Of a stretch of 48,484 nt of DNA, positions 26,901 through 48,200 are shown one piece after another. A program made the position numbers and the translations under genes. Every line of letters starts with the position of its first letter. Position 1 is the first letter of the stretch. Under the pieces are notes generated by a model. That model did not search any database and was not told the origin of the DNA. It worked only from the letters and a program-made list of their open reading frames with translations. Source of the stretch: Botryllus schlosseri (Eukaryota); contig CM119372.1 of NCBI GenBank assembly GCA_051294905.1, positions 40,550,001 through 40,598,484 of the forward strand, given 5' to 3'.

Positions 26901-29149
26901 CACATATTATTTCTCAAAATTATCTAGCAAGCTCGGCTCCTAGGAAGCCTGCTTATCAGGTACGACAAATTGAAAAATCCGAATGCACCAGGAGCATTTT
27001 GTAATGCGGACTCGCCTTAAGACAATCAATATGTAAGGTGATTGTATTACGGGCGCTTAAGTAGTTCGTGAGTCGTATGTACATTCGCTGGACACGGCGC
27101 AATCTTCGGTAGCCAGCAATCGAACCAATCTTATCTACAGACCCTGAACAAACTATCATTGGCCAGCTGATAATACCGTCTGTTTAGTTCCGTTCCTGCG
27201 TAATGTGAAATATCGAATCACGATGCAGGCCAAAGCTCACATATTATTTCTCAATATTATCTAGCAAGCTCGGCTACTAGGAAGCCTGCTTCTCAGATAC
27301 GACTAATTGAAAAATCCGAGCGCACTCGGAGCATTTTGTAATGCGGACTCACCTTAACACAATCAATATGTAAGGTGATTGTATTACGGGCGCTTGATTA
27401 GTACTTGAGTCGTATGTCCTTTTACTGGACACGGCGCAATCTTCGGAAGCCAGCAATCGAACCAATCTTATCTAGAGTCCGTGAACAAACCTTCATTGGC
27501 CCGCTGATAATACCGTCTGTTTAGGTCCGTTCCTGCGTAATGTGAAATATCGAATCACGATGCAGGCCAAAACTCACATATTATTTCTCAAAATTATCTA
27601 GCATGCTCGGCTCCTAGGAAGCCTGCTTATCAGGTACGACAAATTGAAAAATCCGAGCGCACCAGGAGCATTTTGTATTGCGGACTCACCTTAACACAAT
27701 CAATATGTAAGGTGATTGTATTACGGGCACTTGAGTAGTTCGTGAGTCGTATGTCCTTTTACTGGACACGGCGCAATCTTCGAAAGCCAGCAATCGAACC
27801 AATCTTATCTACAGACCCTGAACAAACTATCATTGGCCAGCTGATAATACCGTCTGTTTCGGTCCGTTCCTGCGTAATGTGAAATATCGAATCACGATGC
27901 AGGCCAAAACTCACATTTTATTTCTCAAAATTATCTATCAAGCTCGGCTACTAGGAAGCTTGTTTATCAGATACGACTAATTGAAAAATCCGAGCGCACT
28001 CGGAGCATTTTGTAATGCGGACTCACCTTAACACAATCAATATGTAAGATGATTGTATTACGGGCGCTTAAGTAGTTTGTGAGTCGTATGTACATTTGCT
28101 GGACACGGCGCAATCTTCGGAAGCCAGCAATCGAACCAATCTTATCTACAGACCCTGAACAAACTATCATTGGCCAGCTGATAATACCGTCTTTTTCGGT
28201 CCGTTCCTGCGTAATGTGAAATATCGAATCACGATGCAGGCCAAAACTCACATATAATTTCTCAAAATTATCTAGCATGCTCGGCTCCTAGGAAGCCTGC
28301 TTATCAGGTACGACAAATTGAAAAATCCGAGCGCACTCGGAGCATTTTGTAATGCGGACTCACCTTAACACAATCAATATGTAAGATGATTGTATTACGG
28401 GCGCTTGATTAGTTCGTGAGTCGTATGTACATTCGCTGGACACGGCGCAATCTTCGAAAGCCAGAAATCGATCCAATCTAATCTACAGAACCTGAACAAA
28501 CCATCATTGGCCAGCTGATAATACCGTCTGTTTAGATCGGTTCTTGCGTAATGTGAAAAATCGAATCACGATGCAGGCCAAAACTCACATATTATTTCTC
28601 AAAATTATCTAGCAAGCTCGGCTCCTAGGAAGCCTGCTTATCAGGTACGACAAATTGAAAAATCCGAATGCACCAGGAGCATTTTGTAATGCGGACTCGC
28701 CTTAAGACAATCAATATGTAAGGTGATTGTATTACGGGCGCTTAAGTAGTTCGTGAGTCGTATGTACATTCGCTGGACACGGCGCAATCTTCGGAAGCCA
28801 GCAATCGAACCAATCTTATCTACAGACCCTGAACAAACTATCATTGGCCAGCTGATAATACCGTCTGTTTAGTTCCGTTCCTGCGTAATGTGAAATATCG
28901 AATCACGATGCAGGCCAAAGCTCACAGATTATTTCTCAAAATTATCTAGCAAGCTCGGCTACTAGGAAGCCTGCTTATCAGATACGACTGATTGAAAAAT
29001 CCGAGCGCACTCGGAGCATTTTGTAATGCGGACTCACCTTAACACAATCAATATGTAAGATGATTGTATTACGGGCGCTTAAGTAGTTTGTGAGTCGTAT
29101 GTACATTCGCTGGACACGGCGCAATCTTCGAAAGCCAGCAATCGAACCA
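7457..29149 (-). repeat. 337-bp satellite DNA array, reverse-orientation block (~64 monomers), possibly centromeric/pericentromeric
   Basis: Reverse complement of the same monomer (CGATGCAGGCCAAAACTCAC...) with a 337-bp period up to the telomere junction at 29149. A centromeric role is inference only. Confidence 0.97.
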
Positions 29150-29620
29150 GGGTTAGGGTTAGGGTTAGGGTTAGGGTTAGGGTTAGCGTTAGGGTTAGGG
29201 TTAGGGTTAGGGTTAGGGTTAGGGTTAGGGTTAGGGTTAGGGTTAGGGTTAGGGTTAGGGTTAGGGTTAGGGTTAGGGTTAGGGTTAGGGTTAGGGTTAG
29301 GGTTAGGGTTAGGGTTAGGGTTAGGGTTAGGGTTAGGGTTAGGGTTAGGGTTAGGGTTAGGGTTAGGGTTAGGGTTAGGGTTAGGGTTAGGGTTAGGGTT
29401 AGGGTTAGGGTTAGGGTTAGGGTTAGGGTTAGGGTTAGGGTTAGGGTTAGGGTTAGGGTTAGGGTTAGGGTTAGGGTTAGGGTTAGGGTTAGGGTTAGGG
29501 TTAGGGTTAGGGTTAGGGTTAGGGTTAGGGTTAGGGTTAGGGTTAGGGTTAGGGTTAGGGTTAGGGTTAGGGTTAGGGTTAGGGTTAGGGTTAGGGTTAG
29601 GGTTAGGGTTAGGGTTAGGG
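29150..29620 (+). repeat. Internal (TTAGGG)n telomeric tract, ~78 repeats
   Basis: Pure TTAGGG run with one TTAGCG variant (C at 29187), in the same orientation as the terminal telomere. Confidence 0.99.
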
Positions 29621-29885
29621 ACTTTATTGGCGCCTTCATTTTGCGTTAAAACGTGTACGAGGTCTCATGATAATTCTCCGCCATCGTGAGCTGGTGGAGC
29701 CGCTCATGAATTTCGTACGGAGTGTAAGTGCGTCGCGCTCTCGACGTCGTGAAGGGGCCTTAGACGTATCATGATTGGCGCCACGATTTCGGAAGATTTA
29801 CCATTATTAATTCCGAAGCACGTTCAAACCTCTTTCCCCATGAATGACGATCAAAATAAAGAGTCAGAGAACAAAACTCTGTTTA

Positions 29886-32169
29886 TCAAGATTTATTATT
29901 GATTAGGAACGACTTGATCAATCTTAATTTTGAACGCATTTGTTGAAAAGTCAAATAGCATTCTGATTTATATTCGTGAACAATTTTGCTCAGTAGAGGT
30001 CCGCTGTCGTCATAAAATGCACGCAGGCGAACGTCTTTGATCAATTTCACGACTTGCTCGTTTGTCAAAGTGGTCTTGCTACCTCTCTGCCGGTTACATA
30101 TCGAGTCCGCCAGCTCCTCGACGTCATTACCTGCGCGTTTGAACGTGATCAGACATGCAATTCAGACGGTAATAGCAAATAGATTACCCTCATTTGTGAC
30201 GATCTTTGTGTCGCGGTCCGTAGCGATTAGAGGCTCCGAGCTAGATCCGTTTGAATGCATGTCATCGTCGGTGTCTAAAGTGGTGTCGTCCTTTCTTTCC
30301 GCCTCTGGTTGAACCGTGCTCGGGGCTGAAGTCGGTGTGACGATTTGTGTGTCCTGTTCCGTAGCGATTAAAGGCACTGAGGTAGCTGCGTTTGCTTGCA
30401 TATCATCCTCGTTGTGAAAATTTGTATCGTGCCTTGCTTGCGGATCTGGTTCAGCTGTAGTCGGGGTTGCGGTTGGTGATTCAAATGATCCTTAATTAAC
30501 AGTTGCGATCAGATGTATGACGTCGTAGTTTATTATGACTTTACATACCTTCATTCTGAGGAACGCTTGACGCGGCCAATTCCGAATATAGGTCGTCATG
30601 TGTACTTGACATGGCCATCCCGAGTAATTTCTTGCATAGAATCGCTCCGGCAGCCGCCCTCTTGGTTCTGCCTATTCCGTCATAGTGTCGACTCGCGATC
30701 TCTGTACTGTGGGACGAGGACATCGCGACATGATATTGTCCGATGTCGTCCAGCGAACTGGCCATCGTCGCGACTATTTTACGCAAATGCTGGTACGTGA
30801 GGCAGACTTCGTGGCGACCGAGATATTCCCCGACACAAACCGATAAATTTAGGAAGGGCTTGCCGTTGGAGTTCCGTAACGCTACTTCTTCTCGTGAAAA
30901 ATCCAAGTCTGGATTCGTTTGCTTGCAAATCTGAAATCGAAAAGAGGCTGGAGACCGCTCCATTACACGTTCACATCTTCGTAACACCTACCTGTTTGAA
31001 TCGTTCACAGTCTTGTCGACTCATTACTAACAAGCCCTGATTCGAAGGGCACTTGTTGTGGTCGACCTGTACGACTAACATTTCGGGATCGTTCACAGAA
31101 CGGACGGCGTGGCTAAGCTCGTATCCGGTCACTCTACGAAAATATGACAGTCTCGTGCCACTTTCAAGTCCAACCTGGATGATTGTCGCGGCCAAGCAAT
31201 CCCGCACGTTTTCGTTTGTTAACGGTTGATGGAGGTCTCTTTTAAACGTTTCGCTTTTGATCATTCTAGAAAAACACGCATATTAAACCTAAAACTTTAC
31301 GATATTTTAACCTTAGCACGAACCTTTTGATATTCGGCCAATTTTTATTGATGACGTCCATGTCGAAGGACAAACGTTTCTCGTGCTGCCGCTTTCTTCT
31401 TTTATTGGTCGCTCTAGAGTACGTCGCGATGATTTGTATGGCTCTCAGTTGTTTGTCCGGTGAAACCACTTTTTCCAACAATGCCGGATGGTGCATACGC
31501 GCAAATTCAAGAAATACCTTTAGCGACGTCAGGGTGTTGAAAATAGTGCTCGCGGACAGTGTCCCGTCGGCGTTAGAAATGTACGTGACTAATTCTTCCG
31601 GCTCGTCAACCACATACTTCTTGAACACTGATTTTAGTTTGCTGACGACCATTTTGGTGTTGGCTTCGTCGAGCGCTTGCACTTGGCGATGCCTTTCGTA
31701 CAGGGAGAGTAGCTGTAATAAACGGATCTGCATTATTTCGGTGAAAAGTGACACATTACCATCAGAGTTACTCACGCTTGAAAAGTCGGACTCGAAGGTC
31801 AACTTTTTAAAGTTTTCCTGGTAGGTCTCGCAACCTATCCCGAAGCCGTCGCGTATTTTATCGGAATGAATAATCCTCCAGTGGGTTGCTATATATGCCG
31901 TGGCTACTGATCTAGAGCAGAGACCACACCAAGACCGTGGACGACATTGCTTGGGATCGCGCAAGTAGCGAGCAGACCTGTGACACGTAATATTTATTTG
32001 CTTCTGGTTGTTATAAATAAGCCAACAACGATCTTACTCTTTAATTCTGTCCACGGACCACTTATGAACGTTACGAAGATGCCTCGTTCTATGACCTTTG
32101 GTTTGTATATGGCAAACTTGACACCTGTCGAGTCTGATTCTTTTCGTGGGTCGAATTGCAACGGGATCG
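29886..32169 (-). CDS. Spliced gene for a C2H2 zinc-finger + tyrosine recombinase (phage-integrase fold) protein, >=666 aa; start codon unresolved
   Basis: Exons 32169-32038, 31977-31312, 31265-30992, 30930-30549, 30490-30188 and 30130-29886 are joined in frame by GT-AG introns 32037-31978 (60 nt), 31311-31266 (46), 30991-30931 (61), 30548-30491 (58) and 30187-30131 (57). Zinc fingers: CQVC-x10-HLRNVH and CGLC-x11-HWRIIH. Core-binding-like segment: LSASTIFNTLTSLKVFLEF. Catalytic-type motifs: LESGTR (R), VVQVDHNK (K), TYQHLRKIVAT (R), VAMSSSHSTEIASRHY (H, Y). Confidence 0.85.
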
Positions 32170-32245
32170 CTACAATAGAAATATTAAAAATCGCGCCATG
32201 TTGAAGTTACCGGAGCAGAGAGAGTTATGGACCGAAAACCAACGA

Positions 32246-34630
32246 TTTTGGACTCGGTAAAAGCTATTTCGCCGAATCGCGCCACGCTTAAGCATAGGGA
32301 TTTCGAAATTAGAAGACATTTTCACTCACCCGACGACTTGAGATTCCATTATATGTTCTTGATGCACGGTAATCCACTCCAAACGTCCTTCTAACTCGAC
32401 AGTTCAATAGCATATGAGCGCGCGGCGAGAATTATCTGGAAAAAGATATTCCCGGGTCATTATTACGTCATAGATGGCCCGAAAATTTTTTTATCGAAAA
32501 TCGGTCTGGGGCCCGCCGAAACACGTTTTTTGACGATTTTTATGCATTTTGGGCGGTTGTTGACACTGTTTAAGGTCCTAAATCTCGCTGTGCAGGTAGC
32601 ATGCCAAGTCTACAAGACGCCTAAACCCGTTTTACGCGTAGCCGGCACGCACAACTACCAATATAGACGGTGCAGTACCCGCCGAAACGCTGTTTTGGAC
32701 AATTATTTTAATTTTGACCGACAATTGCGGAGCCGTCGTGCGGTTTGCGGCCCTAAATCTCGCTGTGCAGGTCGCGTGCCAAGTCTACAAGACGCCTAAA
32801 CCCGTTTTACGCGTAGCCGGCACGCACAACTACCAATATAGACGGTGCAGTACCCGCCGAAACGCTGTTTTGGACAATTATTTTAATTTTGACCGACAAT
32901 TGCGGAGCCGTCGTGCGGTTTGCGGCCCTAAATCTCGCTGTGCAGGTCGCGTGCCAAGTCTACAAGACGCCTAAACCCGTTTTACGCGTAGCCGGCACGC
33001 ACAACTACCAATATAGACGGTGCAGTACCCGCCGAAACGCTGTTTTGGACAATTATTTTAATTTTGACCGACAATTGCGGAGCCGTCGTGCGGTTTGCGG
33101 CCCTAAATCTCGCTGTGCAGGTCGCGTGCCAAGTCTACAAGACGCCTAAACCCGTTTTACGCGTAGCCGGCACGCACAACTACCAATATAGACGGTGCAG
33201 TACCCGCCGAAACGCTGTTTTGGACAATTATTTTAATTTTGACCGACAATTGCGGAGCCGTCGTGCGGTTTGCGGCCCTAAATCTCGCTGTGCAGGTCGC
33301 GTGCCAAGTCTACAAGACGCCTAAACCCGTTTTACGCCTAGCCGGCACGCACAACTACCAATATAGACGATGCAGTACCCGCCGAAACACGGTTTTGGAC
33401 TCGGTAAAAGCTATTTCGCCGAATCGCGCCACGCTAAAGTATGTGGATTTCACAACAAGAAGAAATTTTCACTCACCCGGTGACTTGAAATTCCAATAAA
33501 TGTTCCTGATGCACGGTAATCCTCTCACAACGTCCTCCCAACGCGACAGTTCAATAGCATATGAGCGCGCGGCGAGAATTATCTGGAAAAAGATATTCTC
33601 GGGTCATTATTACGTCATAGAGGGCCAGAAAATTTTTTTCTCGAAAATCGGTCTGGGGCCCGCCGAAACACGTTTTTTGACGATTTTTATGCCTTTTGGG
33701 CGGTTGTTGACACTCTTTGCGGCTCTAAATCTCGCTGTGGTTGTCGCGTGCCAAGTCTACAGGACGCCTCAACCCGTTTTACACGTAGCCGGCACGCACA
33801 ACTACCAATATAGACGATGCAGTACCCGCCGAAACGCTGTTTTGGACAATTATTTTAATTTTGACCGACAATTGCGGAGCGGCCGTGCTCTTTGCGGCTC
33901 TAAATCTCGCTGTGGTTGTCGCGTGCCAAGTCTACAAGACGCCTCAACCCGTTTTACGCGTAGCCGGCACGCACAACTACCAATATAGACGATGCAGTAC
34001 CCGCCGAAACACTGTTTTGGACAATTATTTTAATTTTGACCGACAATTGCGGAGCCGTCGTGCTCTTTGCGGCTTTAAATCTCGCTGTGGTTGTCGCGTG
34101 CCAAGTCTACAAGACGCCTCAACCCGTTTTACGCGTAGCCGGCACGCACAACTACCAATATAGACGGTGCAGTACCCGCCGAAACGCTGTTTTGGACAAT
34201 TATTTTAATTTTGACCGACAATTGCGGAGCCGTCGTGCGGTTTGCGGCCCTAAATCTCGCTGTGCAGGTCGCGTGCCAAGTCTACAAGACGCCTAAACCC
34301 GTTTTACGCCTAGCCGGCACGCACAACTACCAATATAGACGATGCAGTACCCGCCGAAACACGGTTTTGGACTCGGTAAAAGCTATTTCGCCGAATCGCG
34401 CCACGCTAAAGTATGTGGATTTCACAACAAGAAGAAATTTTCACTCACCCGGTGACTTGAAATTCCAATAAATGTTCCTGATGCACGGTAATCCTCTCAC
34501 AACGTCCTCCCAACGCGACAGTTCAATAGCATATGAGCGCGCGGCGAGAATTTTCTGAAAAAAGATATTCCCGGGTTATTATTACGTCATAGAGGGCCGG
34601 AAAATTTTTTTCCCGAAAATCGGTCTGGGC
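32246..34630. repeat. Composite tandem repeat: a ~300-bp block alternating with runs of 175-bp subrepeats (units of 1147 and 972 bp, plus a third block)
   Basis: The block TTTTGGACTCGGTAAAAGCTATTTCGCCGAATCGC starts at 32246, 33393 and 34365. The 175-bp period is visible in ORF repeats 32714/32889/33064/33239 and 33861/34036/34211. Confidence 0.95.
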
Positions 34631-34669
34631 CGATTTTTTTGAATTTTTTCGGGTTTTTGACCGACATTG

Positions 34670-35510
34670 CGGAGCCGTGACACTGTTTAAGGTCCCAAAT
34701 CTCGCTGTGGTTGTCTGGTGCAGGGCCTACAACAGGGACAGACCGCTTTTACGGGCCTCCGACAAGGACAGGGAGCGATATCGACGAAGCAGCACGCGCC
34801 GAAACACGGTTTTCGACCATTTTTGGAATTTTGCGCGACAATTACGGGGCCGTGACACTGTTTGAGGTCCTGAATTTCGCTGTGGTTGTCTGGTGCAGGG
34901 CCTACAACAGGGACAGACCGCTTTTACGGGTCTCCGACAAGGACAGGAAGCGATATCGACGAAGCAGCACGCGCCGAAACACGGTTTTCGACCATTTTTG
35001 GAATTTTGCGCGACAATTACGGGGCCGTGACACTGTTTGAGGTCCTGAATTTCGCTGTGGTTGTCTGGTGCAGGGCCTACAACAGGGACAGACCGCTTTT
35101 ACGGGCCTCCGACAAGGACAGGGAGCGATATCGACGAAGCAGCACGCGCCGAAACACGGTTTTCGACCATTTTTGGAATTTTGCGCGACAATTACGGGGC
35201 CGTGACACTGTTTGAGGTCCTGAATTTCGCTGTGGTTGTCTGGTGCAGGGCCTACAACAGGGACAGACCGCTTTTACGGGTCTCCGACAAGGACAGGAAG
35301 CGATATCGACGAAGCAGCACGCGCCGAAACACGGTTTTCGACCATTTTTGGAATTTTGCGCGACAATTACGGGGCCGTGACACTGTTTGAGGTCCTGAAT
35401 TTCGCTGTGGTTGTCTGGTGCAGGGCCTACAACAGGGACAGACCGCTTTTACGGGCCTCCGACAAGGACAGGGAGCGATATCGACGAAGCAGCACGCGCC
35501 GAAACACGGT
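34670..35510. repeat. Second, diverged 175-bp subrepeat family (~5 copies, alternating A/B variants)
   Basis: 175-bp period (34711/34886/35061/35236/35411). Variants GGGCCTCC..GGGAGCG and GGGTCTCC..GGAAGCG alternate. Shares TCGCTGTGGTTGTC and CGCCGAAACAC with the first 175-bp family. Confidence 0.95.
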
Positions 35511-35745
35511 TTTTCGCGATTTTTCCCAATTTTTTCGGGTTTTTGACCGGCGATTGCGGAGCAGTCACACTGATTCAGGGCCTGAATATCGCTGCGGTGG
35601 TCGGGTGCAGGGCTTACAAGACGCGGCAACCTCTCTTACTGGTCTCCCACACGTACAATATGGGGATTTCGGACTTGGTCGTTTCTCGCACTTCGTCCAT
35701 ACCTTAACATAGGGCCCATACCATAACACGGGCGGACCGCCTATA

Positions 35746-36625
35746 CTTGCTCGGATCGGTTCCAAACTTCGTGTGAGGGGTCTCATGGATGACTTTTTGC
35801 CGGCAAAAAAAATCAACTTTTGCCGAGGAAAATTTTGGACTTAGTCGTTTTTCGACCTCGCCCATACTTTAACATGGGGGCCTACGGTAGGTCGGCCGAA
35901 CTTGCTCGGATCGGTTCCAAACTTCGTGTGAGGGGTCTCGTGGATGACTTTTTGCCGGCAAAAAAAATCAACTTTTGCCGAGGAAAATTTTGGACTTAGT
36001 CGTTTTTCGACCTCGCCCATACTTTAACATGGGGGCCTACGGTAGGTCGGCCGAACTTGCTCGGATCGGTTCCAAACTTCGTGTGAGGGGTCTCGTGGAT
36101 GACTTTTGGCCGGCAAAAAAAATCAACTTTTGCCGAGGAAAATTTTGGACTTAGTCGTTTTTCGACCTCGCCCATACTTTAACATGGGGGCCTACGGTAG
36201 GTCGGCCGAACTTGCTCGGATCGGTTCCAAACTTCGTGTGAGGGGTCTCGTGGATGACTTTTTGCCGGCAAAAAAAATCAACTTTTGCCGAGGAAAATTT
36301 TGGACTTAGTCGTTTTTCGACCTCGCCCATACTTTAACATGGGGGCCTACGGTAGGTCGGCCGAACTTGCTCGGATCGGTTCCAAACTTCGTGTGAGGGG
36401 TCTCGTGGATGACTTTTGGCCGGCAAAAAAAATCAACTTTTGCCGAGGAAAATGTTGGACTTAGTCGTTTTTCGACCTCGCCCATACTTTAACATGGGGG
36501 CCTACGGTAGGTCGGCCGAACTTGCTCGGATCGGTTCCAAACTTCGTGTGAGGGGTCTCGTGGATGACTTTTGGCCGGCAAAAAAAATCAACTTTTGCCG
36601 AGGGAAATTTTGGACTTGGTCGTTT
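35746..36625. repeat. 155-bp tandem repeat (~5.7 copies)
   Basis: CTTGCTCGGATCGGTTCCAAACTTCGTGTGAGGGG starts at 35746, 35901, 36056, 36211, 36366 and 36521. Degenerate copies recur at ~38300-38560. Confidence 0.96.
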
Positions 36626-36629
36626 TTCC

Positions 36630-38280
36630 CGGGGGTTCGGACTTAGAAAAAATCCGAGTATTGTCGAAATTTTTTTTTCTCCGATTCCGATTTCCCGCAC
36701 ATCGGCGGACTCGTGGGAGCCCGTAGATCGCGAATACACCGTTTTCCGGGCGCTGGGAGGCCGTACGAGAAAGAAAAATTTTCACACTCGCTTTGGCATC
36801 AGGAGTCCATTTCGACTATCCGCGTAGCTCTAGGACGCACAGGAGCCGAGATACGAGTTTTTTGCGAATAGCTCGGCTCCTGTTCGGGCCAGACACACGC
36901 GGGACCCCTCGTTGGAAGCGGCGCAGCGAGACGAATCCGGGAAAAAAAAAAATTATCGAAATCGGACTTGCCGGAGCCGAGATATCTCCGGTTGAAGCGC
37001 GCCAAAATCGGACCTTTGACCGGCTCTGGAGGCCGAGCCGTTTGTCGGATCGGGATAATTCCTTTGCGGGGCGTCTTCAAACAGTGCGGGGAACGCGCCC
37101 GTGTGGTTTTCAGGCGAAAAAATTTTTTTTCGGACTTTAACTTTTTTATGATCTCGGCCCCGTGTTAAAGTATGGGGATTTCGGACTTGGAAAAAATCCG
37201 ACGAGGTCGAAAATTTTTTTTCTCCGATTTCGATTTCCAGCACACCGACGGACTCGTGGGAGCTCGTAGACCCCCGCTAGCCACTTTTCCGGTCGCCAGG
37301 AGGCCGCACGAGAAAGAAAAATTTTCACCCTTGCTTTGGCATCAGGAGTCCATTTCGACTATGCACGTAGCTCTAGGATGCACAGGAGCCGAGATACGAG
37401 TTTTTCGTGAATAGCTCGGCCCCTGTTCGGACCAGACCCACGCTGGACCCCTCGTTGGAAGCGGCGCAGCGAGACGAATCCGGGAAAAAAAAATTTTTGA
37501 AATCGGACACACCGGAGCCGAGATATCCCCGGTTAAAGCCCGCCGAAATCGGACCTTTGACCGGCTCTGGAGGCCGAGCCGTTTGTCGGATCGGGATAAT
37601 TCCTTTGCGGGGCGTCTTCAAACAGTGCGGGGAACGCGCCCGTGTGGTTTTCAGGCGAAAAAATTTTTTTTCGGACTTTAACTTTTTTATGATCTCGGCC
37701 CCGTGTTAAAGTATGGGGATTTCGGACTTGGAAAAAATCCGACGAGGTCGAAAATTTTTTTTCTCCGATTTCGATTTCCCGCACACCGACGGACTCGTGG
37801 GAGCTCGTAGACCCCCGCTAGCCACTTTTCCGGTCGCCAGGAGGCCGCACGAGAAAGAAAAATTTTCACCCTTGCTTTGGCATCAGGAGTCCATTTCGAC
37901 TATGCACGTAGCTCTAGGATGCACAGGAGCCGAGATACGAGTTTTTCGTGAATAGCTCGGCCCCTGTTTGGACCAGACCCACGCTGGACCCCTCGTTGGA
38001 AGCGGCGCAGCGAGACGAATCCGGGAAAAAAAAAATTTTCGAAATCGGACACACCGGAGCCGAGATATCCCCGGTTAAAGCCCGCCGAAATCGGACCTTT
38101 GACCGGCTCTGGAGGCCGAGCCGTTTGTCGGATCGGGATAATTCCTTTGCGGGGCGTCTTCAAACAGTGCGGGGAACGCGCCCGTGTGGTTTTTAGGTGA
38201 AAAATTTTTTTTCGGACTTTAACTTTTTCACGATCTCGGCCCCATGTTAAAGTATGGGGATTTCGGACTTGGAAAAAATC
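36630..38280. repeat. 541-bp tandem repeat (3 copies, the first more diverged)
   Basis: Identical ORF pairs 37146/37687 and 37172/37713; GCTTTGGCATCAGGAGTCCATTTCGACTAT occurs three times. Confidence 0.95.
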
Positions 38281-38734
38281 CGAGACCGAGTTGAGAGAAA
38301 GTTAAAGTCCGAGCGCCCATTCTTTAACATGGGAGCCTACGGTAGATCGGCTGGACTCGGTCCGATCGACTCCAAACTTCGTGTGCGGGGTCTTATGGAT
38401 GACTTTTGGCCGGCGAAAAAGATCGACTTTTTTCGAGGAAGATTTCGGACTTAGTCGTTTTTCGCACCTCGCCCATACCTTAACATAGGGCCCATACCTT
38501 GACACGGGCGGAACGCCTATAGTTGGTCGGATCGGCCCCAAACTTCGTGTGTGGGGTCCCGTGGGAGGCATTTTCGAAAAGTTTTTTTTTAATTATTTTT
38601 TATTTTTTCGGAAAAAAAAATTTATTTTCCGGGAAAAAAAATTTTCTTGGCCGGCGAAAATTTTCCGGCCCCCCGGCCCGGGTGCGACCCTGAAAAACGA
38701 CTAAGTAGAAAAAAGTCACCAGGGTTTCCGAAAA

Positions 38735-38756
38735 ATTACTAATATAGGAAGGGGCG
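38735..38756 (+). promoter_or_regulatory. Possible RNA polymerase I initiation-site-like motif (TTACTAATATAGGAAGGGG)
   Basis: Lies at the boundary between A/T-tract-rich spacer-like repeats and a GC-rich region containing rRNA fragments. Resembles the TATA(G)G-rich rDNA start motifs of plants and insects. Position and motif resemblance only. Confidence 0.3.
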
Positions 38757-40704
38757 CGCGCCCGGCGCCTGACGGGAGGCCGGGAGCGTAACGTTGAATC
38801 TGCCGGCGAGAGGGGCTGTCGGCGCGGCGGAATTGATCCGTCGTCACCGGTTGGAGCGAAAGCATATGGGGGTGCGAAGCCAGCACTAATCACGGGTCGG
38901 CGAACCTCGAGTCGCGGGTTTAAACGTTGCGTGTCGCCAATCGCTGCATAGAGCGAGCTTGCCCGGTATGCCGTAGACGGCGGGATATGGATGATAGTGA
39001 CCCTACACCTGTCATACAGCCATGAGGCATACCGGAGAGCGGACTCAATAAATGCTGCGCGGACGCGACGCGTTGTACTTCGGGCCTCGCGGCCCAGACC
39101 CTTCCTACGTAGCCTTGCGGCGTCGCCGAGGAGAGAATCCGGCGTCGAGAAGCCGGCAGACCGGTGTGTCGCACTCCGGCGAGCCGGCGGAGCTAAATTA
39201 TGAGCTGGGGCAGCAAAAATTCAGGCGTCGGTCGAGGGGGTAGGCCGGCGTCGCGCGAGTACGCGGCGTGGACGCGAAACGGCGGATACGCCTTTTAATC
39301 GAGAGCGTAAGTACCTACGCGGGCGCCGAGAACGGCGGCGCCGGTGTCGGAGGTAGCCGACACCCTGGTCCCCGCCCAGGGGCGGACCTCGCAGTGCGCG
39401 AGATATATCATTCAAGTGTCTACCCAAGGCATGGTAAGTGCCTTATGAACGTGCCCCGCCGCTAGAAGTGAAATTCGTCGTTCGGCGGTGGTACGAACAG
39501 TTGCGGGAACGCTCGCCAAGGGCGTTTTCATTAATCGAGAGCGAAGGTCGGTGCGTGGGCCGTAATCCCGCGCGTTGTCCAGATACGTTGCGGATGACGA
39601 TGAGACGACTCTTGACGGTGGATACTCTCCAACCGCGAATCGTGCGTGTGGAGGCCTTCGCGGGCCGCCCACGGTAAGGACAAACCTGAATGTTTGGGCG
39701 TCGGGTCGCAAGGCTCGTCGTTCTACGGTTTACGAGCGCTGTCGTCAATGCTCGGGGTCCGGGCCCTCGCCGTTTGTCGACCCGGTCGTCGCTATCGCGC
39801 CACCGTGCGCGGTACGCTCGGCCGGAGCGACTTTCGGCTTCTCGGGCGCGGCTCCGTGGCGATTGGCGGCGGTCAGAATCGAAGTGGCGAAGAGAGTTCA
39901 AATCCAGGCGGGACCGTCTTGAGGATAAACGATAAGGTCCTGTCGTCAGCTCGGGGTCGCTTTGTGTCGGGCGCGGGGGCGCGCTTCGGCGTCGGCGGGG
40001 CATCGCGCCCTGCCGCGTCGTTGCGCGCGAGTCGCACCGTCGAATGGGCTTCCCGGGGCGGGCCACGACCTGCTCGCGGTCGATGGTCTAGGTAAGGTTG
40101 TCGCGAAAGTTCGTCCGACTCCGGTTACGATTCGGGAACTGCGGTCCGTACGGCCCGTGAGTCCCGCGCTCTGCCGGAAGCGTCCGTTCGCCTCGCGACT
40201 CCTTGACCTCTCACGAGAACACGGACCTATGAACGATTATAGCGTGAACGCAAGTTGTCGGGCGAAACGAGAACCCGCAGCGATACTAGATGCCGCTCCT
40301 GCCGATTGCGGTCGGTCGGTCGGTGTTGTGAAAGAGCGTTTACGCTTGCCCGAAAGATGGTGGATAGGCGTCGCGGCCAGCCGCGCGCCTCTCGCGACGT
40401 GGCCTTCCTGGAGCCGATACATGCGATTGAGCGCCGACCGTCCGCGGAAGGCGTGCAGTTATCGAAAATGCTCCGGATAACCACGCGTAAACGGCAACTT
40501 GGGTGTTTCGTACACCGCTGCGACCGGATCAGGGTTCGATCCTAGAGAGGGAGCGCGAAATTGTGGATGGTGGTGCATAAATCGAAAGGCGCCTGTCAGG
40601 CGTCGCGTCGCCAAGCGCGTCGCATGGTGAAACCGAACGAGGTGTAAAATCATTTGTGAGCTGGGTGCACGTGACGAAAATCAGATATATGCAATTTAAG
40701 CGTG

Positions 40705-41890
40705 GCGAAAAAAATCGTTGAATTCCTTGCGGTGGAGTCGGTGTGACGCAGCCGGTCAGGATTGGCCGTTAAGGTGTAGCGAAAGTCGTCAATTGCCACG
40801 TAAGAATGCGCGGCGGCCTTAAGCAAGTCGCCGACGCGATGCGGAGCGCGAGCGGGGAACGGGTCCGAACGCCTCTAGGACCCGGTCTTCGGCCGTGGCG
40901 AACGAAACAGAATGCGAGGTGGCCTTAAGCAAGTCGCCGACGCGATGCGGAGCGCGAGCGGGGAACGGGTCCGAACGCCTCTAGAACCCGGTCTTTCGCC
41001 GCGGCGAACGAGAAAAAATGAGCGGTGGCCTTGAGCAAGTCACTGGTCGCAGAGAACGTTTTCATTGAGAAACTGTGGCGAGAAAAATCGTTGAATTCCT
41101 TGCGGTGGAGTCGGTGTGACGCAGCCGGTCAGGATTGGCCGTTAAGGTGTAGCGAAAGTCGTCAATTGCCACGTAAGAATGCGCGGCGGCCTTAAGCAAG
41201 TCGCCGACGCGATGCGGAGCGCGAGCGGGGAACGGGTCCGAACGCCTCTAGGACCCGGTCTTCGGCCGCGGCGAACGAAACAGAATGCGAGGTGGCCTTA
41301 AGCAAGTCGCCGACGCGATGCGGAGCGCGAGCGGGGAACGGGTCCGAACGCCTCTAGGACCCGGTCTTCGGCCGCGGCGAACGAAACAGAATGCGAGGTG
41401 GCCTTAAGCAAGTCGCCGACGCGATGCGGAGCGCGAGCGGGGAACGGGTCCGAACGCCTCTAGAACCCGGTCTTTCGCCGCGGCGAACGAGAAAAAATGA
41501 GCGGTGGCCTTGAGCAAGTCACTGGTCGCAGAGAACGTTTTCATTGAGAAACTGTGGCGAGAAAAATCGTTGAATTCCTTGCGGTGGAGTCGGTGTGACG
41601 CAGCCGGTCAGGATTGGCCGTTAAGGTGTAGCGAAAGTCGTCAATTGCCACGTAAGAATGCGCGGCGGCCTTAAGCAAGTCGCCGACGCGATGCGGAGCG
41701 CGAGCGGGGAACGGGTCCGAACGCCTCTAGGACCCGGTCTTCGGCCGCGGCGAACGAAACAGAATGCGAGGTGGCCTTAAGCAAGTCGCCGACGCGATGC
41801 GGAGCGCGAGCGGGGAACGGGTCCGAACGCCTCTAGGACCCGGTCTTTCGCCGCGGCGAACGAGAAAAAATGAGCGGCGGCCTTGAGCAA
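40705..41890. repeat. Nested tandem repeat: 373/479-bp units containing 2-3 copies of a 106-bp subrepeat
   Basis: TCGTTGAATTCCTTGCGG at 40715, 41088 and 41567; GGCCTTAAGCAAGTCGCCGACG at 40815/40921, 41188/41294/41400 and two further copies. Confidence 0.94.
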
Positions 41891-42159
41891 GCTGCCGACC
41901 AGAAGCAATGCGGGGCGCAAGCGTTCGTACGACTCTGGCTTCGTGTTGGGAACCGCGGGTGCGATCGGCCCGTGAGTCCCGCATGTTGTCGGGACAGTCC
42001 GTTCGCCTTGCGCAGTTAAGGAGAGTGCGTTCTCTCGTTAGTCTCCAAGGTACAACGCCGGTCGAGGGCGAGGCCGGCGCGGAAAACGAACTTTGCGGGG
42101 CGTGGCAACCCTGGCCTCCCCCGCGTCGAAGGACGCGGTAGCGCCGGGAAGCGAACTCG

Positions 42160-42653
42160 TAGCAGTGCGGGTTTTCTGTACTGAGAAATTGACTCTGGGT
42201 AAAGCAGCTCTGCCCAGTGCTCTGAATGTCAAAGTGAAGAAATTCAGCCGAGCAAGCGAAGGATGGGGCCGTTCATCAGCCCTGAATGGTGAGCACGAGT
42301 AGAAGCAGTGCCGCGAAACCGAAAGATGGTTAACAGTACGGGTACTCCGCACTGAGAAAATGACTCTGGGTAATGCGAGCTCTGCCCAGTGCTCTGAATG
42401 TCAAAGTGAAGAAATTCAGCCGAGCAAGCGAAGGATGGGGCCGTTCATCAGCCCTGAATGGTGAGCACGAGTAGAAGCAGTGCCGCGAAACCGAAAGATG
42501 GTTAACAGTACGGGTACTCCGCACTGAGAAAATGACTCTGGGTAATGCGAGCTCTGCCCAGTGCTCTGAATGTCAAAGTGAAGAAATTCAGCCGAGCAAG
42601 CGAAGGATGGGGCCGTTCATCAGCCCGGAATGGTGAGCACGAGTAGAAGCAGT
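42160..42653. repeat. 172-bp tandem repeat (~3 copies), each carrying a 38-nt conserved 28S rRNA segment
   Basis: TCTGCCCAGTG at 42209, 42381 and 42553 (period 172). Confidence 0.95.
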
Positions 42654-43299
42654 GAAGTAGAAGTGGGAGACGGTCGCTGATCTTGTCGGGATGCGGGCAG
42701 CCGTTCCTACTCCGCTTCGGGCTGTCGCGGTCGTCTATCCGGAAGGGCCCCCGGATAGACGGACGCGAGCCCGAAGCGGAGTCGGGGCGAAACACCTATT
42801 CACAACGGTGCTGCCTGCGCCCGCCTAAATCAGCAGCCGTCGTTGGAAGTAGCAAATATTTTCGTTTTTGATTTCGTGCTTGAAAGTGTGTCCCCGCGCA
42901 CGCCCCGTTAATTTGGGGCGCGCGCGGGGACTTTTTTTTTCGTCAGAGTCCGAAAAAGATCGCCACGGTTCTTGGGTGGTTTTTGGTCGGCGATCGGGCC
43001 TCGCTGCGCGCTTATTCTTTTCGTTGGAGTCCGAAAAAAATCACCGGGGTTTGGCTCGGTCTTCGTCGGCCGAACTTCAAGTATTTTTCGATCTCGACCC
43101 TGGCTTAAAGTGGAGAGATCTCGGACTTAGAAAATATTCGACAAAAAAAACTTCAACTTTTTTCGAGGTGGGTAGGCATTAACTGTTTTATACACGTGTC
43201 TATTTTTTTTTTCGATTTCAGGGGTGGAAATAATGTGAACACCTATCTTCAAAGTGAAAAGGTCCTTCCACGAAACGATGAAACAAACAGCAGCTTCGT

Positions 43300-43420
43300 T
43301 CACCCGTATTTATTTCTAATCAGACAATTTTTGATAAATCTGATTTTTTCGCGCATCTGCTGAAAACTCAGGCAGCACTCGCTCTTGTAGCCGTGTACAA
43401 TTTTGCTCAGCAGATGACCA
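43300..43420 (-). pseudogene. Truncated 3' fragment of a paralogue of the YR gene
   Basis: GHLLSKIVHGYKSECCLSFQQMREKIRFIKNCLIRNKYG* aligns without gaps to the YR C-terminus GPLLSKIVHEYKSECYLTFQQMRSKLRLIKSFLINNKS* (29886-30002). Confidence 0.88.
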
Positions 43421-43487
43421 CGCCTAGGTGGTTTAGAACGAAAAAGAAAGTAGTCGAAAAACTCCAACTGTTTTCGACCTCGACCCA

Positions 43488-45275
43488 TGTTAAGAGATAG
43501 GGAGATTTTCATGATAGGCGCCAGCTCATGATGTCGCCACCAGATACGACTTGGTCGTTTTTCGACCTAGCCCACACAAAGTAACATAGACGGGCATTTC
43601 AGACTTGCTCATATCATCTCCAGAATCCTGTGTGGGCTCTCGTTGGTGACTTTTGGCCGGCAAAAAATTGGAACTTTAGCCGGAAAAAATTCCGGACTCA
43701 TGATAGGCGCCACGTATTGAAGACGCAAATTTCGTGTCATGTTGAACCGTTGAACGCTACGGGAGCAGTAGAACGCGACCAGGGGGTTTGGAACAACGAC
43801 CCACGCATTCCTCACGGTCGAATTCACCTACGATAGGGATTTCGGACCTGGTCGATTTTCATGATGGGCGCCAGTCATGATGGCGCCATCAGATTAAGCA
43901 TAAGACCTGATCGATTTTCATGATCGGCGCCACTCATGATCGTCGCCACGAATTCAAGCATACGCCAATACTGTGACATTTCGACTTTATCCGGAAAAAT
44001 TCCGGACTCCGTCACGCTTTCGTGATCGGCTCCAGGTATCGAAGGCGCCAAATTCCGGGTATCGAAGGCACCAAACGCATGTCTGTTAAGAGATAGGGAG
44101 ATTTTCATGATAGGCGCCAGCTCATGATGTCGCCACCAGATACGACTTGGTCGTTTTTCGACCTAGCCCACACAAAGTAACATAGACGGGCATTTCAGAC
44201 TTGCTCATATCATCTCCAGAATCCTGTGTGGGCTCTCGTTGGTGACTTTTGGCCGGCAAAAAATTGGAACTTTAGCCGGAAAAAATTCCGGACTCATGAT
44301 AGGCGCCACGTATTGAAGACGCAAATTTCGTGTCATGTTGAACCGTTGAACGCTACGGGAGCAGTAGAACGCGACCAGGGGGTTTGGAACAACGACCCAC
44401 GCATTCCTCACGGTCGAATTCACCTACGATAGGGATTTCGGACCTGGTCGATTTTCATGATGGGCGCCAGTCATGATGGCGCCATCAGATTAAGCATAAG
44501 ACCTGATCGATTTTCATGATCGGCGCCACTCATGATCGTCGCCACGAATTCAAGCATACGCCAATACTGTGACATTTCGACTTTATCCGGAAAAATTCCG
44601 GACTCCGTCACGCTTTCGTGATCGGCTCCAGGTATCGAAGGCGCCAAATTCCGGGTATCGAAGGCACCAAACGCATGTCTGTTAAGAGATAGGGAGATTT
44701 TCATGATAGGCGCCAGCTCATGATGTCGCCACCAGATACGACTTGGTCGTTTTTCGACCTAGCCCACACAAAGTAACATAGACGGGCATTTCAGACTTGC
44801 TCATATCATCTCCAGAATCCTGTGTGGGCTCTCGTTGGTGACTTTTGGCCGGCAAAAAATTGGAACTTTAGCCGGAAAAAATTCCGGACTCATGATAGGC
44901 GCCACGTATTGAAGACGCAAATTTCGTGTCATGTTGAACCGTTGAACGCTACGGGAGCAGTAGAACGCGACCAGGGGGTTTGGAACAACGACCCACGCAT
45001 TCCTCACGGTCGAATTCACCTACGATAGGGATTTCGGACCTGGTCGATTTTCATGATGGGCGCCAGTCATGATGGCGCCATCAGATTAAGCATAAGACCT
45101 GATCGATTTTCATGATCGGCGCCACTCATGATCGTCGCCACGAATTCAAGCATACGCCAATACTGTGACATTTCGACTTTATCCGGAAAAATTCCGGACT
45201 CCGTCACGCTTTCGTGATCGGCTCCAGGTATCGAAGGCGCCAAATTCCGGGTATCGAAGGCACCAAACGCATGTC
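43488..45275. repeat. 596-bp telomere-adjacent tandem repeat, exactly 3 copies
   Basis: TGTTAAGAGATAGGGAG starts at 43488, 44084 and 44680; the third copy ends ...AAACGCATGTC at 45275, directly before AAGGGTTAGGG. Confidence 0.97.
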
Positions 45276-45276
45276 A

Positions 45277-48200
45277 AGGGTTAGGGTTAGGGTTAGGGTT
45301 AGGGTTAGGGTTAGGGTTAGGGTTAGGGTTAGGGTTAGGGTTAGGGGTTAGGGTTAGGGTTAGGGTTAGGGTTAGGGTTAGGGTTAGGGTTAGGGTTAGG
45401 GTTAGGGTTAGGGTTAGGGTTAGGGTTAGGGTTAGGGTTAGGGTTAGGGTTAGGGTTAGGGTTAGGGTTAGGGTTAGGGTTAGGGTTAGGGTTAGGGTTA
45501 GGGTTAGGGTTAGGGTTAGGGTTAGGGTTAGGGTTAGGGTTAGGGTTAGGGTTAGGGTTAGGGTTAGGGTTAGGGTTAGGGTTAGGGTTAGGGTTAGGGT
45601 TAGGGTTAGGGTTAGGGTTAGGGTTAGGGTTAGGGTTAGGGTTAGGGTTAGGGTTAGGGTTAGGGTTAGGGTTAGGGTTAGGGTTAGGGTTAGGGTTAGG
45701 GTTAGGGTTAGGGTTAGGGTTAGGGTTAGGGTTAGGGTTAGGGTTAGGGTTAGGGTTAGGGTTAGGGTTAGGGTTAGGGTTAGGGTTAGGGTTAGGGTTA
45801 GGGTTAGGGTTAGGGTTAGGGTTAGGGTTAGGGTTAGGGTTAGGGTTAGGGTTAGGGTTAGGGTTAGGGTTAGGGTTAGGGTTAGGGTTAGGGTTAGGGT
45901 TAGGGTTAGGGTTAGGGTTAGGGTTAGGGTTAGGGTTAGGGTTAGGGTTAGGGTTAGGGTTAGGGTTAGGGTTAGGGTTAGGGTTAGGGTTAGGGTTAGG
46001 GTTAGGGTTAGGGTTAGGGTTAGGGTTAGGGTTAGGGTTAGGGTTAGGGTTAGGGTTAGGGTTAGGGTTAGGGTTAGGGTTAGGGTTAGGGTTAGGGTTA
46101 GGGTTAGGGTTAGGGTTAGGGTTAGGGTTAGGGTTAGGGTTAGGGTTAGGGTTAGGGTTAGGGTTAGGGTTAGGGTTAGGGTTAGGGTTAGGGTTAGGGT
46201 TAGGGTTAGGGTTAGGGTTAGGGTTAGGGTTAGGGTTAGGGTTAGGGTTAGGGTTAGGGTTAGGGTTAGGGTTAGGGTTAGGGTTAGGGTTAGGGTTAGG
46301 GTTAGGGTTAGGGTTAGGGTTAGGGTTAGGGTTAGGGTTAGGGTTAGGGTTAGGGTTAGGGTTAGGGTTAGGGTTAGGGTTAGGGTTAGGGTTAGGGTTA
46401 GGGTTAGGGTTAGGGTTAGGGTTAGGGTTAGGGTTAGGGTTAGGGTTAGGGTTAGGGTTAGGGTTAGGGTTAGGGTTAGGGTTAGGGTTAGGGTTAGGGT
46501 TAGGGTTAGGGTTAGGGTTAGGGTTAGGGTTAGGGTTAGGGTTAGGGTTAGGGTTAGGGTTAGGGTTAGGGTTAGGGTTAGGGTTAGGGTTAGGGTTAGG
46601 GTTAGGGTTAGGGTTAGGGTTAGGGTTAGGGTTAGGGTTAGGGTTAGGGTTAGGGTTAGGGTTAGGGTTAGGGTTAGGGTTAGGGTTAGGGTTAGGGTTA
46701 GGGTTAGGGTTAGGGTTAGGGTTAGGGTTAGGGTTAGGGTTAGGGTTAGGGTTAGGGTTAGGGTTAGGGTTAGGGTTAGGGTTAGGGTTAGGGTTAGGGT
46801 TAGGGTTAGGGTTAGGGTTAGGGTTAGGGTTAGGGTTAGGGTTAGGGTTAGGGTTAGGGTTAGGGTTAGGGTTAGGGTTAGGGTTAGGGTTAGGGTTAGG
46901 GTTAGGGTTAGGGTTAGGGTTAGGGTTAGGGTTAGGGTTAGGGTTAGGGTTAGGGTTAGGGTTAGGGTTAGGGTTAGGGTTAGGGTTAGGGTTAGGGTTA
47001 GGGTTAGGGTTAGGGTTAGGGTTAGGGTTAGGGTTAGGGTTAGGGTTAGGGTTAGGGTTAGGGTTAGGGTTAGGGTTAGGGTTAGGGTTAGGGTTAGGGT
47101 TAGGGTTAGGGTTAGGGTTAGGGTTAGGGTTAGGGTTAGGGTTAGGGTTAGGGTTAGGGTTAGGGTTAGGGTTAGGGTTAGGGTTAGGGTTAGGGTTAGG
47201 GTTAGGGTTAGGGTTAGGGTTAGGGTTAGGGTTAGGGTTAGGGTTAGGGTTAGGGTTAGGGTTAGGGTTAGGGTTAGGGTTAGGGTTAGGGTTAGGGTTA
47301 GGGTTAGGGTTAGGGTTAGGGTTAGGGTTAGGGTTAGGGTTAGGGTTAGGGTTAGGGTTAGGGTTAGGGTTAGGGTTAGGGTTAGGGTTAGGGTTAGGGT
47401 TAGGGTTAGGGTTAGGGTTAGGGTTAGGGTTAGGGTTAGGGTTAGGGTTAGGGTTAGGGTTAGGGTTAGGGTTAGGGTTAGGGTTAGGGTTAGGGTTAGG
47501 GTTAGGGTTAGGGTTAGGGTTAGGGTTAGGGTTAGGGTTAGGGTTAGGGTTAGGGTTAGGGTTAGGGTTAGGGTTAGGGTTAGGGTTAGGGTTAGGGTTA
47601 GGGTTAGGGTTAGGGTTAGGGTTAGGGTTAGGGTTAGGGTTAGGGTTAGGGTTAGGGTTAGGGTTAGGGTTAGGGTTAGGGTTAGGGTTAGGGTTAGGGT
47701 TAGGGTTAGGGTTAGGGTTAGGGTTAGGGTTAGGGTTAGGGTTAGGGTTAGGGTTAGGGTTAGGGTTAGGGTTAGGGTTAGGGTTAGGGTTAGGGTTAGG
47801 GTTAGGGTTAGGGTTAGGGTTAGGGTTAGGGTTAGGGTTAGGGTTAGGGTTAGGGTTAGGGTTAGGGTTAGGGTTAGGGTTAGGGTTAGGGTTAGGGTTA
47901 GGGTTAGGGTTAGGGTTAGGGTTAGGGTTAGGGTTAGGGTTAGGGTTAGGGTTAGGGTTAGGGTTAGGGTTAGGGTTAGGGTTAGGGTTAGGGTTAGGGT
48001 TAGGGTTAGGGTTAGGGTTAGGGTTAGGGTTAGGGTTAGGGTTAGGGTTAGGGTTAGGGTTAGGGTTAGGGTTAGGGTTAGGGTTAGGGTTAGGGTTAGG
48101 GTTAGGGTTAGGGTTAGGGTTAGGGTTAGGGTTAGGGTTAGGGTTAGGGTTAGGGTTAGGGTTAGGGTTAGGGTTAGGGTTAGGGTTAGGGTTAGGGTTA

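Follow-up and report, generated by a model that had tools for sequence, protein, structure and literature searches.

Introduction

Telomeres are a textbook refuge for mobile elements, and the well-studied residents of this niche are retroelements. The telomere-specific retrotransposons TRAS/SART and HeT-A/TART occupy telomere repeats in a fixed orientation and form terminal arrays. The Y' elements of yeast are likewise terminal and multicopy, are sometimes arranged in tandem with telomere repeats between the copies, and possess one large open reading frame (ORF) that encodes a helicase. Here we report on the final stretch of a Botryllus schlosseri contig (CM119372.1, in the following C2; 48,484 nucleotides, “the window”), in which an element of 15,656 bp with a single recombinase-like gene is embedded in telomeric TTAGGG repeats at a chromosome end.

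Among DNA elements, Cryptons (Goodwin et al. 2003; Kojima & Jurka 2011, PMC3212892) possess 4- or 6-bp terminal direct repeats that are taken to be recombination substrates. They are recognized by these short repeats of 4-6 bp at either terminus and by the lack of terminal inverted repeats (TIRs) and long terminal repeats (LTRs) (PMC3212892). The CryptonV families of cnidarians are cited as microsatellite-specific, after Kapitonov & Jurka 2012 in Repbase Reports (PMC8869645). Endogenous nimaviruses of crustaceans insert into (TAACC)n telomere repeats by means of a distinct recombinase family (Kawato et al. 2023, PMC10871703), and Nimav-1_LVa of Bao et al. is cited among them. The nimaviral recombinase is described as combining a C2H2 part with a SAM-like domain and retaining five of seven key residues, and sister lineages target 28S rDNA (PMC10871703).

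With the nimaviruses in telomere repeats and CryptonV in microsatellites, recombinase-based insertion of this kind is not unprecedented, and the initial annotation of the window, which knew of no described tyrosine recombinase (YR) element with such a target, went too far in this respect. A full-text literature search, with Repbase Reports and subscription journals outside its scope, retrieved no small TTAGGG-specific recombinase element; the only recombinase-based telomere cases we found in print are the 300-kb crustacean viruses in TAACC repeats.

Position of the element at the chromosome end

The assembly examined comprises 495.5 Mb in 219 contigs, and the window represents the final 48,484 bases of C2. 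As its last base is the end of the contig (40,598,484), the outer TTAGGG tract is terminal in the assembly. The element (29621-45276) begins with ACTTTATTGGCGCC and ends with ACGCATGTCA. It is preceded on the proximal side by an inner TTAGGG tract (29149-29620, forward strand) of 472 bp or 78.7 units with one TTAGCG variant, and followed on the distal side by a shared AGGG (45277-45280, forward strand) and the terminal TTAGGG array (45281-48484, forward strand), which runs to the end of the contig. Counted from 45277 to 48483, this outer tract has 534 units and a single extra G after unit 11. The element is thus embedded in telomeric repeats at a chromosome end, and the sharp-ended segment between two same-orientation tracts, of which the initial annotation had spoken, is confirmed with both tracts present.

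The right boundary had been set at 45275, correct to within one base. It is ambiguous by nature, because the AGGG following 45276 fits the end of the element and the telomere repeat equally well. These four bases are the only ones common to the right end, the head-to-tail junction between copies and the TTAGGG target, and on the basis of the junction sequences they are proposed as the crossover core. Chance can be excluded for this arrangement, since a pattern of three telomere units matches 602 times in the window and not once in shuffled sequence, and since the 17-mer of the left junction (GGGACTTTATTGGCGCC) has 20 exact occurrences in the genome. Allowing two mismatches in the 17-mer added 20 further matches, which is at the level of the reversed-pattern control (51).

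Element termini across the genome

The 20 left ends are located on C2, C114, C4, C22, C11, C16, C3 (two), C132 and C30 (eleven). Genome-wide, the DNA of the gene region is matched 39 times, and the size of the family members ranges from 14 to 23 kb. All 20 share the same start (ACTTTATTGGCGCCTTC..., 29621-29660 in the window, forward strand), all are preceded by GGG directly before ACTTTATTGGCGCC in element orientation, and all have the same orientation relative to the G-strand. Over the first 40 nt the window-type subfamily differs from the C30-type at two positions and from the C3 copies at three. A TTAGGG tract precedes nine of the left ends, and the remaining eleven are preceded by AAGGG at the right end of another copy.

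The proximal TTAGGG tracts measure 472 bp on C2, 186 bp on C30, 78 bp on C16 and 60 bp at one C3 copy; shorter ones are found on C114 (approximately 29 bp), C22 (15 bp), C4 (12 bp), C11 (9 bp) and at the other C3 copy (8 bp). Beyond them the flanks belong to at least seven different sequences, including a satellite, the same satellite reversed and with another breakpoint, two distinct unique sequences (C114 and the proximal C3 copy), a 22-bp minisatellite common to C22 and C11 (unit GAGACTCGTGGCGACTTGTCAT), a truncated element copy and an inverted truncated copy.

There are 15 canonical right ends (ACGCATGTCAAGGG), and in each of them AGGG follows directly after GCATGTCA. The next bases are TTAGGG in four cases (C2, C4, C114 and one on C30) and ACTTTA in eleven, where the left end of the next copy directly adjoins; copies on C3, C16 and C22 lack a canonical right end. 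All nine non-tandem left flanks and all four non-tandem right flanks are TTAGGG repeats. This is largely what the initial annotation had hoped to see in support of its proposal, namely multiple copies with constant ends (20/20 left, 15/15 right) and TTAGGG flanks. The recurrence with identical ends suggests a mobile element that homes to telomeres, though ordinary end-to-end copying could spread it too.

Several of the copies are found at contig ends. The C4 copy (at 3.8-26.6 kb) lies at the left end of a 30-Mb contig, the C3 copies (at 16-27 kb) lie at the left end of a 38-Mb contig, and C114 is a 37.6-kb contig with telomere repeats at its end. C30 (212.5 kb) is entirely a head-to-tail array of 12 copies with units of 16.7-18.9 kb; together with C132 it is an unplaced contig consisting only of array.

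Neither TIRs nor long terminal direct repeats were found on the element. Near its ends lie the two arms of a short inverted repeat, TTGGCGCCTTC on the left (29627-29637, forward strand) and GAAGGCACCAA on the right (45256-45266, forward strand), the latter followed by ACGCATGTCA at 45267-45276. Across a head-to-tail junction they form the 11-nt inverted repeat GAAGGCRCCAA / TTGGYGCCTTC, complementary at 10 of 11 positions, which encloses the 20 nt ACGCATGTCA|AGGGACTTTA; part of this symmetry is automatic because the arms contain the palindrome GGCGCC. The motif TGATNGGCGCC was matched 27 times against 2.5 expected, with 24 matches in the last 1.8 kb and two in the first 160 bp.

Some copies are altered. 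C11:263691-266853 is a gene-less derivative, in which the first 163 bp of the left end are fused to a repeat of the 175-bp type described below. The proximal C3 copy (C3:17152-20316) ends inside the 541-bp repeat, where ten TTAGGG units cap it ahead of the next copy; it is a healed break inside an element. A cluster of copies is found at C16:22,230,000-22,290,000, approximately 360-420 kb from the right end of this contig. It consists of a copy of the element's own family (family A) in the “wrong” orientation behind the 78-bp TTAGGG tract, an inverted truncated copy capped by 13 telomere repeats, a copy of the related family B and rDNA-like units, and it is either an internalized old chromosome end or a mis-oriented scaffold piece.

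The recombinase-like gene

The gene is located on the reverse strand (29886-32349) and comprises eight exons (32349-32330, 32169-32038, 31977-31776, 31712-31324, 31265-30992, 30930-30549, 30490-30188 and 30130-29886) with a product of 648 aa. The first exon, 20 nt with the ATG, is a prediction only. The seven introns of 160, 60, 63, 58, 61, 58 and 57 nt are bordered by GT..AG, and these splice sites are kept in 11 out of 11 projected copies. The 63-nt intron is in frame and free of stops in the window and was recognized because of a 1-nt indel in other subfamilies. Read support, examined over 29621-32570, is too thin for expression to be called: in run X1, presumed by kind, the gene is covered largely in unspliced form, and a single spliced contig skips 60 nt exactly at the predicted second intron, 32037-31978 (reverse strand). 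The single-cell run X23 has 19 reads on the gene region, 15 of them just 90-95% alike, and the bulk RNA run X21 has none, an outcome without weight.

The product starts with two C2H2-like fingers (C-x2-C-x10/11-H-x4-H) and a central region. A catalytic-type domain follows, in which the motifs GTRLSYFRR, VQVDHNK, YQHLRK, SSSHS and RHYDG are found, and then an acidic repeat and a conserved tail. The acidic repeat is a coding repeat of 141 bp (47 aa) in exon 7 (30188-30490), the copy number of which varies between element copies; exon 7 accordingly measures 162, 303, 432, 444 or 726 nt and always stays in frame.

The 648-aa frame is open in the window and on C114, C4, C22, C132, C30 (two copies checked), C16 (22.24 Mb) and in one C3 copy, and it has one stop in the second C3 copy. 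Two internal copies (C16:213 kb and C3:8.99 Mb) have frameshifts and miss the terminal 214-434 bp; telomere repeats are absent from their vicinity. Comparison of the window gene with the 91% identical subfamily over 459 codons gave a Ka/Ks of 0.22 at a Ks of 0.23 (61.2 synonymous differences in 305.5 sites, 52.8 non-synonymous differences in 1071.5 sites). In the last exon Ka/Ks is 0.17-0.21, and it is 0.18 for the C132 type compared to the C3 type. Telomeric copies possess an intact gene, which is under purifying selection. As Pfam searches of 16 other ORFs of the segment gave no match, and no reverse transcriptase or other transposase was found on the ORFs, the element has this one gene only.

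To assign the product, the protein searches were run with exon-wise queries and with a paralogue that has an in-frame intron, both standing in for the spliced protein. Little or no variation is seen in the motifs GTRLS(Y/H)FRR, a hairpin Lys, YQHLRK, SxHS and HYDG among seven paralogues with identities as low as 41%. They yield the residue order Arg, hairpin Lys, Arg, His, Tyr with a spacing of R-24-H-9-Y, which would correspond to that of Cre, lambda Int and XerD. In the ESM Atlas, the neighbours of the paralogue domain (0.95) and of the window exon (0.92) fall into clusters with PF00589, ResT/TelK, NDC10_II and DUF3435; we regard these neighbours as leads only, which point towards integrases. 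A trace of Phage_int_SAM_1, a SAM-like integrase N-domain, was seen at E 0.09 in the central region, in the N-terminal exon of a paralogue. On motif order, spacing and these protein-language-model look-alikes, the assignment as a tyrosine recombinase is a qualified one: a recombinase fold is probable, and we infer rather than observe both this fold and catalysis. The initial annotation had named an intron-containing zinc-finger YR protein as the only convincing gene of the segment. Introns, fingers, intactness and constraint hold, but the recombinase identity was not confirmed by profile or structure.

Related families

At the protein level exon 6 has 54 matches in the genome. Family B, 62-64% identical, has members at the left C9 telomere, beside the C16 copy and on C49. 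In the first of these places (C9:1-8600) a 3.7-kb CCCTAA array adjoins a G+C-rich module shared with the element, followed by the family B gene (67% DNA identity). This array abuts a different point of the module in opposite orientation and with another junction, ...CTCGCGTATCG|GGTTAGGG. A more distant family (41% identical) has three interstitial copies with 98-100% identity among them (C1:13.17 Mb, C5:20.76 Mb, C3:8.88 Mb), a degree of likeness that suggests recent transposition of a non-telomeric relative. Many decayed gene fragments cluster at C3:6.6-9.1 Mb.

Outside this genome the family is hardly represented in public protein collections. A phmmer search of exon 6 against 1.84 billion protein representatives found two unnamed Logan proteins, and a profile found the same two; the exon-3 frame had no relative among longer proteins, and no relative of the family was found in metagenome contigs and viral contigs.

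Repeat modules and surroundings

Outside the gene the element is made of tandem repeats with periods of 175, 155, 541, 106/373/479, 172 and 596 bp. Upstream of the gene lie three blocks of 175-bp tandem repeats with linkers of approximately 300 bp (32577-35513, forward strand), which have no similarity to the rDNA spacer. They are followed by a copy of the host rDNA intergenic spacer (35665-39154, forward strand) with 155-bp and 541-bp sub-repeats and a part from the upstream side of the 18S. This copy is collinear with C28:~59900-64314 at 89-94% identity; C28 is the rDNA array, with units of approximately 11-16 kb and without a copy of the recombinase-like gene.

The next module is a G+C-rich (60-63%) non-coding region (39155-42179, forward strand) with repeats of 106/373/479 bp at 40702-41899; its ORFs have no Pfam match. 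It is 84-98% identical to the family B copy on C9, the gene of which is only 67% identical. It is followed by 2.8 units of a 172-bp tandem repeat (42180-42654, forward strand), and each unit carries a 45-nt piece of the host 28S rRNA gene with 43 of 45 positions identical (42209-42253, 42381-42425 and 42553-42597). The G+C-rich part was considered as an rRNA gene and rejected, as only this 45-nt piece and the spacer are present, and the piece was also rejected as a counterpart of the nimaviral 28S target, since the motifs differ. Three 596-bp repeats, dense in TGATNGGCGCC, constitute the right end (43488-45276, forward strand), and over the final 300 bp subfamilies with 91% identical genes reach 98% identity.

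At 42702-42794 a G+C-rich, near-perfect hairpin of approximately 90 nt was noticed, with sub-threshold matches to microRNA precursor models (E 1e-4 when 651 nt were searched); most likely it is no more than a palindrome. Rfam gave nothing at gathering thresholds over the whole window, and at E up to 1 the sub-threshold matches were confined to the LSU piece, SNORD38 and miRNA models on the hairpin.

Everything proximal of the inner TTAGGG tract is a 337-bp satellite of approximately 86 units (1-29149), and its join to the tract reads ...AATCGAACCA|GGGTTAGGG. The satellite flips its orientation between 7438 and 7457, at the same place where the GC skew changes sign.

Discussion

Our preferred reading, for which we see the scales in balance, is that the element may be a Crypton-like DNA element that integrates at the AGGG of TTAGGG and is moved by its own tyrosine-recombinase-like protein. 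Constant ends, AGGG at both boundaries, a fixed orientation, a site-like junction and a constrained gene together form the pattern that is expected from site-specific integration of a circle. The joined ends, either of a circle or of a head-to-tail pair, would form the site GAAGGCACCAA-ACGCATGTCA-AGGG-ACTTTA-TTGGCGCCTTC with 11-nt inverted arms, a 20-nt spacer and flanking arrays of the TGATNGGCGCC motif. The protein would swap strands between the AGGG of this site and the AGGG of a telomere repeat, and its two C2H2-like fingers might guide it. Towards the centromere this would leave TTAGGG|ACTTTA... and distally ...GTCA|AGGGTTAGGG, with a single orientation throughout. Integration beside a resident copy or copying of the circle could generate tandem arrays in which AGGG alone joins the copies, and chromosome-end recombination could then spread and homogenize the copies, with the rDNA spacer and the 28S pieces presumably acquired from the host. 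The circular intermediate is an assumed one, and the head-to-tail junction of C30 and C132 resembles what a circle junction would be; integration, rather than copying, as the origin of the insertions is likewise conjectural.

A number of observations weigh against this reading. Regarding the protein, the His of the HxxR motif lies one residue off (QHLR), and Y/H takes the place of the acidic residue that follows the first Arg. Pfam searches on the exons gave no match to PF00589, DUF3435 or DUF3504 at E up to 10, PHROGs and NCBIfam searches with 13 family members gave no integrase family, and phmmer and hmmsearch against the PDB, by sequence and by profile, returned chance matches only (E above 0.5). 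The comparison of the family profile with P1 Cre and lambda Int by hhalign remained below 1% probability, which is a weak test because the templates were single sequences. AlphaFold2 on the contiguous 258-aa frame of a paralogue with a 13-row alignment reached a pLDDT of 37 and is unusable. Regarding the DNA, the 4-bp core is short and the 20-nt spacer long for the tyrosine-recombinase class, and AGGG-only head-to-tail junctions are confined to one subfamily (C30/C132). An empty-site allele was searched for in the assembly with the 23-mer of the satellite/telomere junction and none was found; as the 23-mer is unique in the genome, the assembly contains no alternative allele.

The remaining observations of this kind are at the same time those on which the main rival explanation draws. 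The element could be a terminal block comparable to yeast Y', deriving from one ancestral insertion or from an rDNA-derived subtelomere, which was spread by break-induced replication or ectopic exchange starting from critically short telomeres. Its tandem arrays would then result from AGGG microhomology and unequal exchange, and the gene would be a passenger or fulfil another selected function, for instance in resolving or excising arrays, without catalysing the insertion into telomeres. The proximal tracts of 8, 9, 12, 15, approximately 29, 60 and 78 bp resemble healed or eroded ends that gained the block later. Of the nine left flanks with telomere repeats, at least six measure no more than 8-78 bp, compared to terminal arrays of at least 3.2 kb (3.2 kb on C2, 3.7 kb on C9), and by simple arithmetic uniform insertion into such arrays would leave tracts that short in approximately 2-3% of events. 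The C3 copy capped by ten repeats and the inverted C16 copy capped by 13 point in the same direction, and the minisatellite flank common to C22 and C11 argues for segmental copying.

A further hint comes from the distal arrays. An extra G is found 11 units into the array on C2 and 9 units into that on C4, in each case as the sole variant, in 533 and 248 units, respectively; the distal array of C114 lacks it. The variant shared near the array start looks as if the distal flank had been copied along with the element. The identity between subfamilies also climbs towards the telomere, from 84% at the left end over 91% in the gene and 96% in the spacer module to 98% at the right end, a gradient that repeated terminal repair by copying would yield. 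Finally the element is a mosaic of the rDNA spacer (89-94%), a 28S fragment and modules that recur in other arrangements, with family B on C9 and in the rDNA spacer, as is usual for subtelomeres.

Recombinational copying fits several of these observations at least as well as site-specific integration does. Against an explanation by copying alone stand the purifying selection and the intactness of specifically the telomeric gene copies, which would need an added explanation, the eleven tandem junctions, which keep exactly AGGG inside an inverted repeat and motif arrays and look like a recombination site rather than chance microhomology, and the related families, which behave as dispersed young repeats. 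In view of the short left flanks, the shared extra G, the identity gradient and the mosaic we therefore do not go beyond an even call for integration, and we regard a purely recombinational spread as a serious contender that is nevertheless rather doubtful. Enzyme-mediated integration and recombinational spread are not mutually exclusive. Of the initial proposal, a YR element integrating into telomeric repeats, the copies, ends, flanks, orientation and gene bear up, while the fold is no more than probable and copying accounts for several of the observations at least as well.

An assembly artefact, in which two telomere-bearing pieces were misjoined via the 472-bp tract and the element is the ordinary subtelomere of another end, is very unlikely. 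The unplaced array-only contigs C30 and C132 would suit it; however, the same layout of telomere, element and telomere is present on C4 and C114 with other proximal DNA and other tract lengths, and it recurs between copies on C3, C16 and C30, so that the misjoin would have to be repeated at the same nucleotide in many contigs. That the element is the surviving integrase end of a giant element or of a once larger viral insertion, for instance of a telomere-inserting nimavirus, is hardly credible despite the C2H2 fingers, the multi-exon gene and the five of seven key residues that parallel the reported nimaviral recombinases (PMC10871703), since complete copies are bounded by telomere repeats on both sides within 14-23 kb, have no further coding capacity, lack a relative in the viral contig collection and carry host rDNA spacer as cargo.

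Returning to integration by the element's own protein, a fuller and more tentative picture, which we would not expect to hold in all its parts, is that of an autonomous non-viral element. It would combine a highly divergent zinc-finger YR with a circular form, be specific for site and orientation at the AGGG of vertebrate-type TTAGGG, and build terminal tandem arrays like those of telomeric retrotransposons, though by DNA recombination. The captured rDNA spacer might drive transcription towards the chromosome end, very short telomeres would be preferred, and the arrays could provide a back-up cap.

If integration is the correct explanation, site-specific recombination into telomeres evolved in small transposons as well. 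The locus would then offer a simple system for reconstitution, consisting of one protein, a joined-ends site of approximately 40 bp and a 6-bp repeat as target, and a natural case in which terminal arrays could cushion the loss of telomeres. With its rDNA spacer and 28S pieces the element connects two classical repeat niches, rDNA and telomeres. Even with a purely recombinational spread, the locus records how chromosome ends of this genome were rebuilt from healed breaks.

Comparison with known systems

The element resembles Cryptons in its single recombinase-type gene and the lack of a reverse transcriptase, a likeness that holds only if the recombinase assignment is right. It is also without TIRs or LTRs and has AGGG at both boundaries in every copy, which agrees with the terminal direct repeats of 4-6 bp described for Cryptons (PMC3212892), and gene-less derivatives exist, as on C11. 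Insertion into a simple repeat is a trait also cited for CryptonV (PMC8869645). The differences are that we found no Pfam match to DUF3504 (CryptonA/I) or DUF3435 (fungal), that the element is much larger (14-23 kb), that it is made mostly of tandem repeats and host rDNA spacer, that its gene comprises several exons and encodes two C2H2-like fingers, and that intact copies are confined to telomeric repeats.

With the endogenous nimaviruses it shares the insertion into the host telomere repeat in constant orientation and, compared by domain description, a C2H2-bearing recombinase with a multi-exon gene and five of seven canonical residues. Concatemeric or episomal forms are suspected for these viruses, and a sister lineage targets 28S rDNA, where the present element carries rDNA pieces. 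The viruses, however, are described with 278-401 kb, dozens of viral genes and the target (TAACC)n, compared to 15.7 kb, one gene and (TTAGGG)n here, and the reported nimaviral 28S target motif differs from the 28S piece of the element.

Yeast Y' is matched in the terminal and multicopy occurrence, the occasional tandem arrangement, the one large ORF and a copy number that varies between ends; acquisition by short telomeres, as for Y', would account for the short proximal tracts. Y' encodes a helicase, whereas the element encodes a recombinase-like protein, and Y' junctions hold telomere tracts of variable length, whereas the junction of the element is a constant four bases inside an inverted repeat. 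With TRAS/SART and HeT-A/TART the element has the niche in common, that is orientation-specific residence in telomere repeats and terminal arrays. It differs from them in having neither reverse transcriptase nor endonuclease nor a poly(A) junction, and in its ends, which are precise on both sides.

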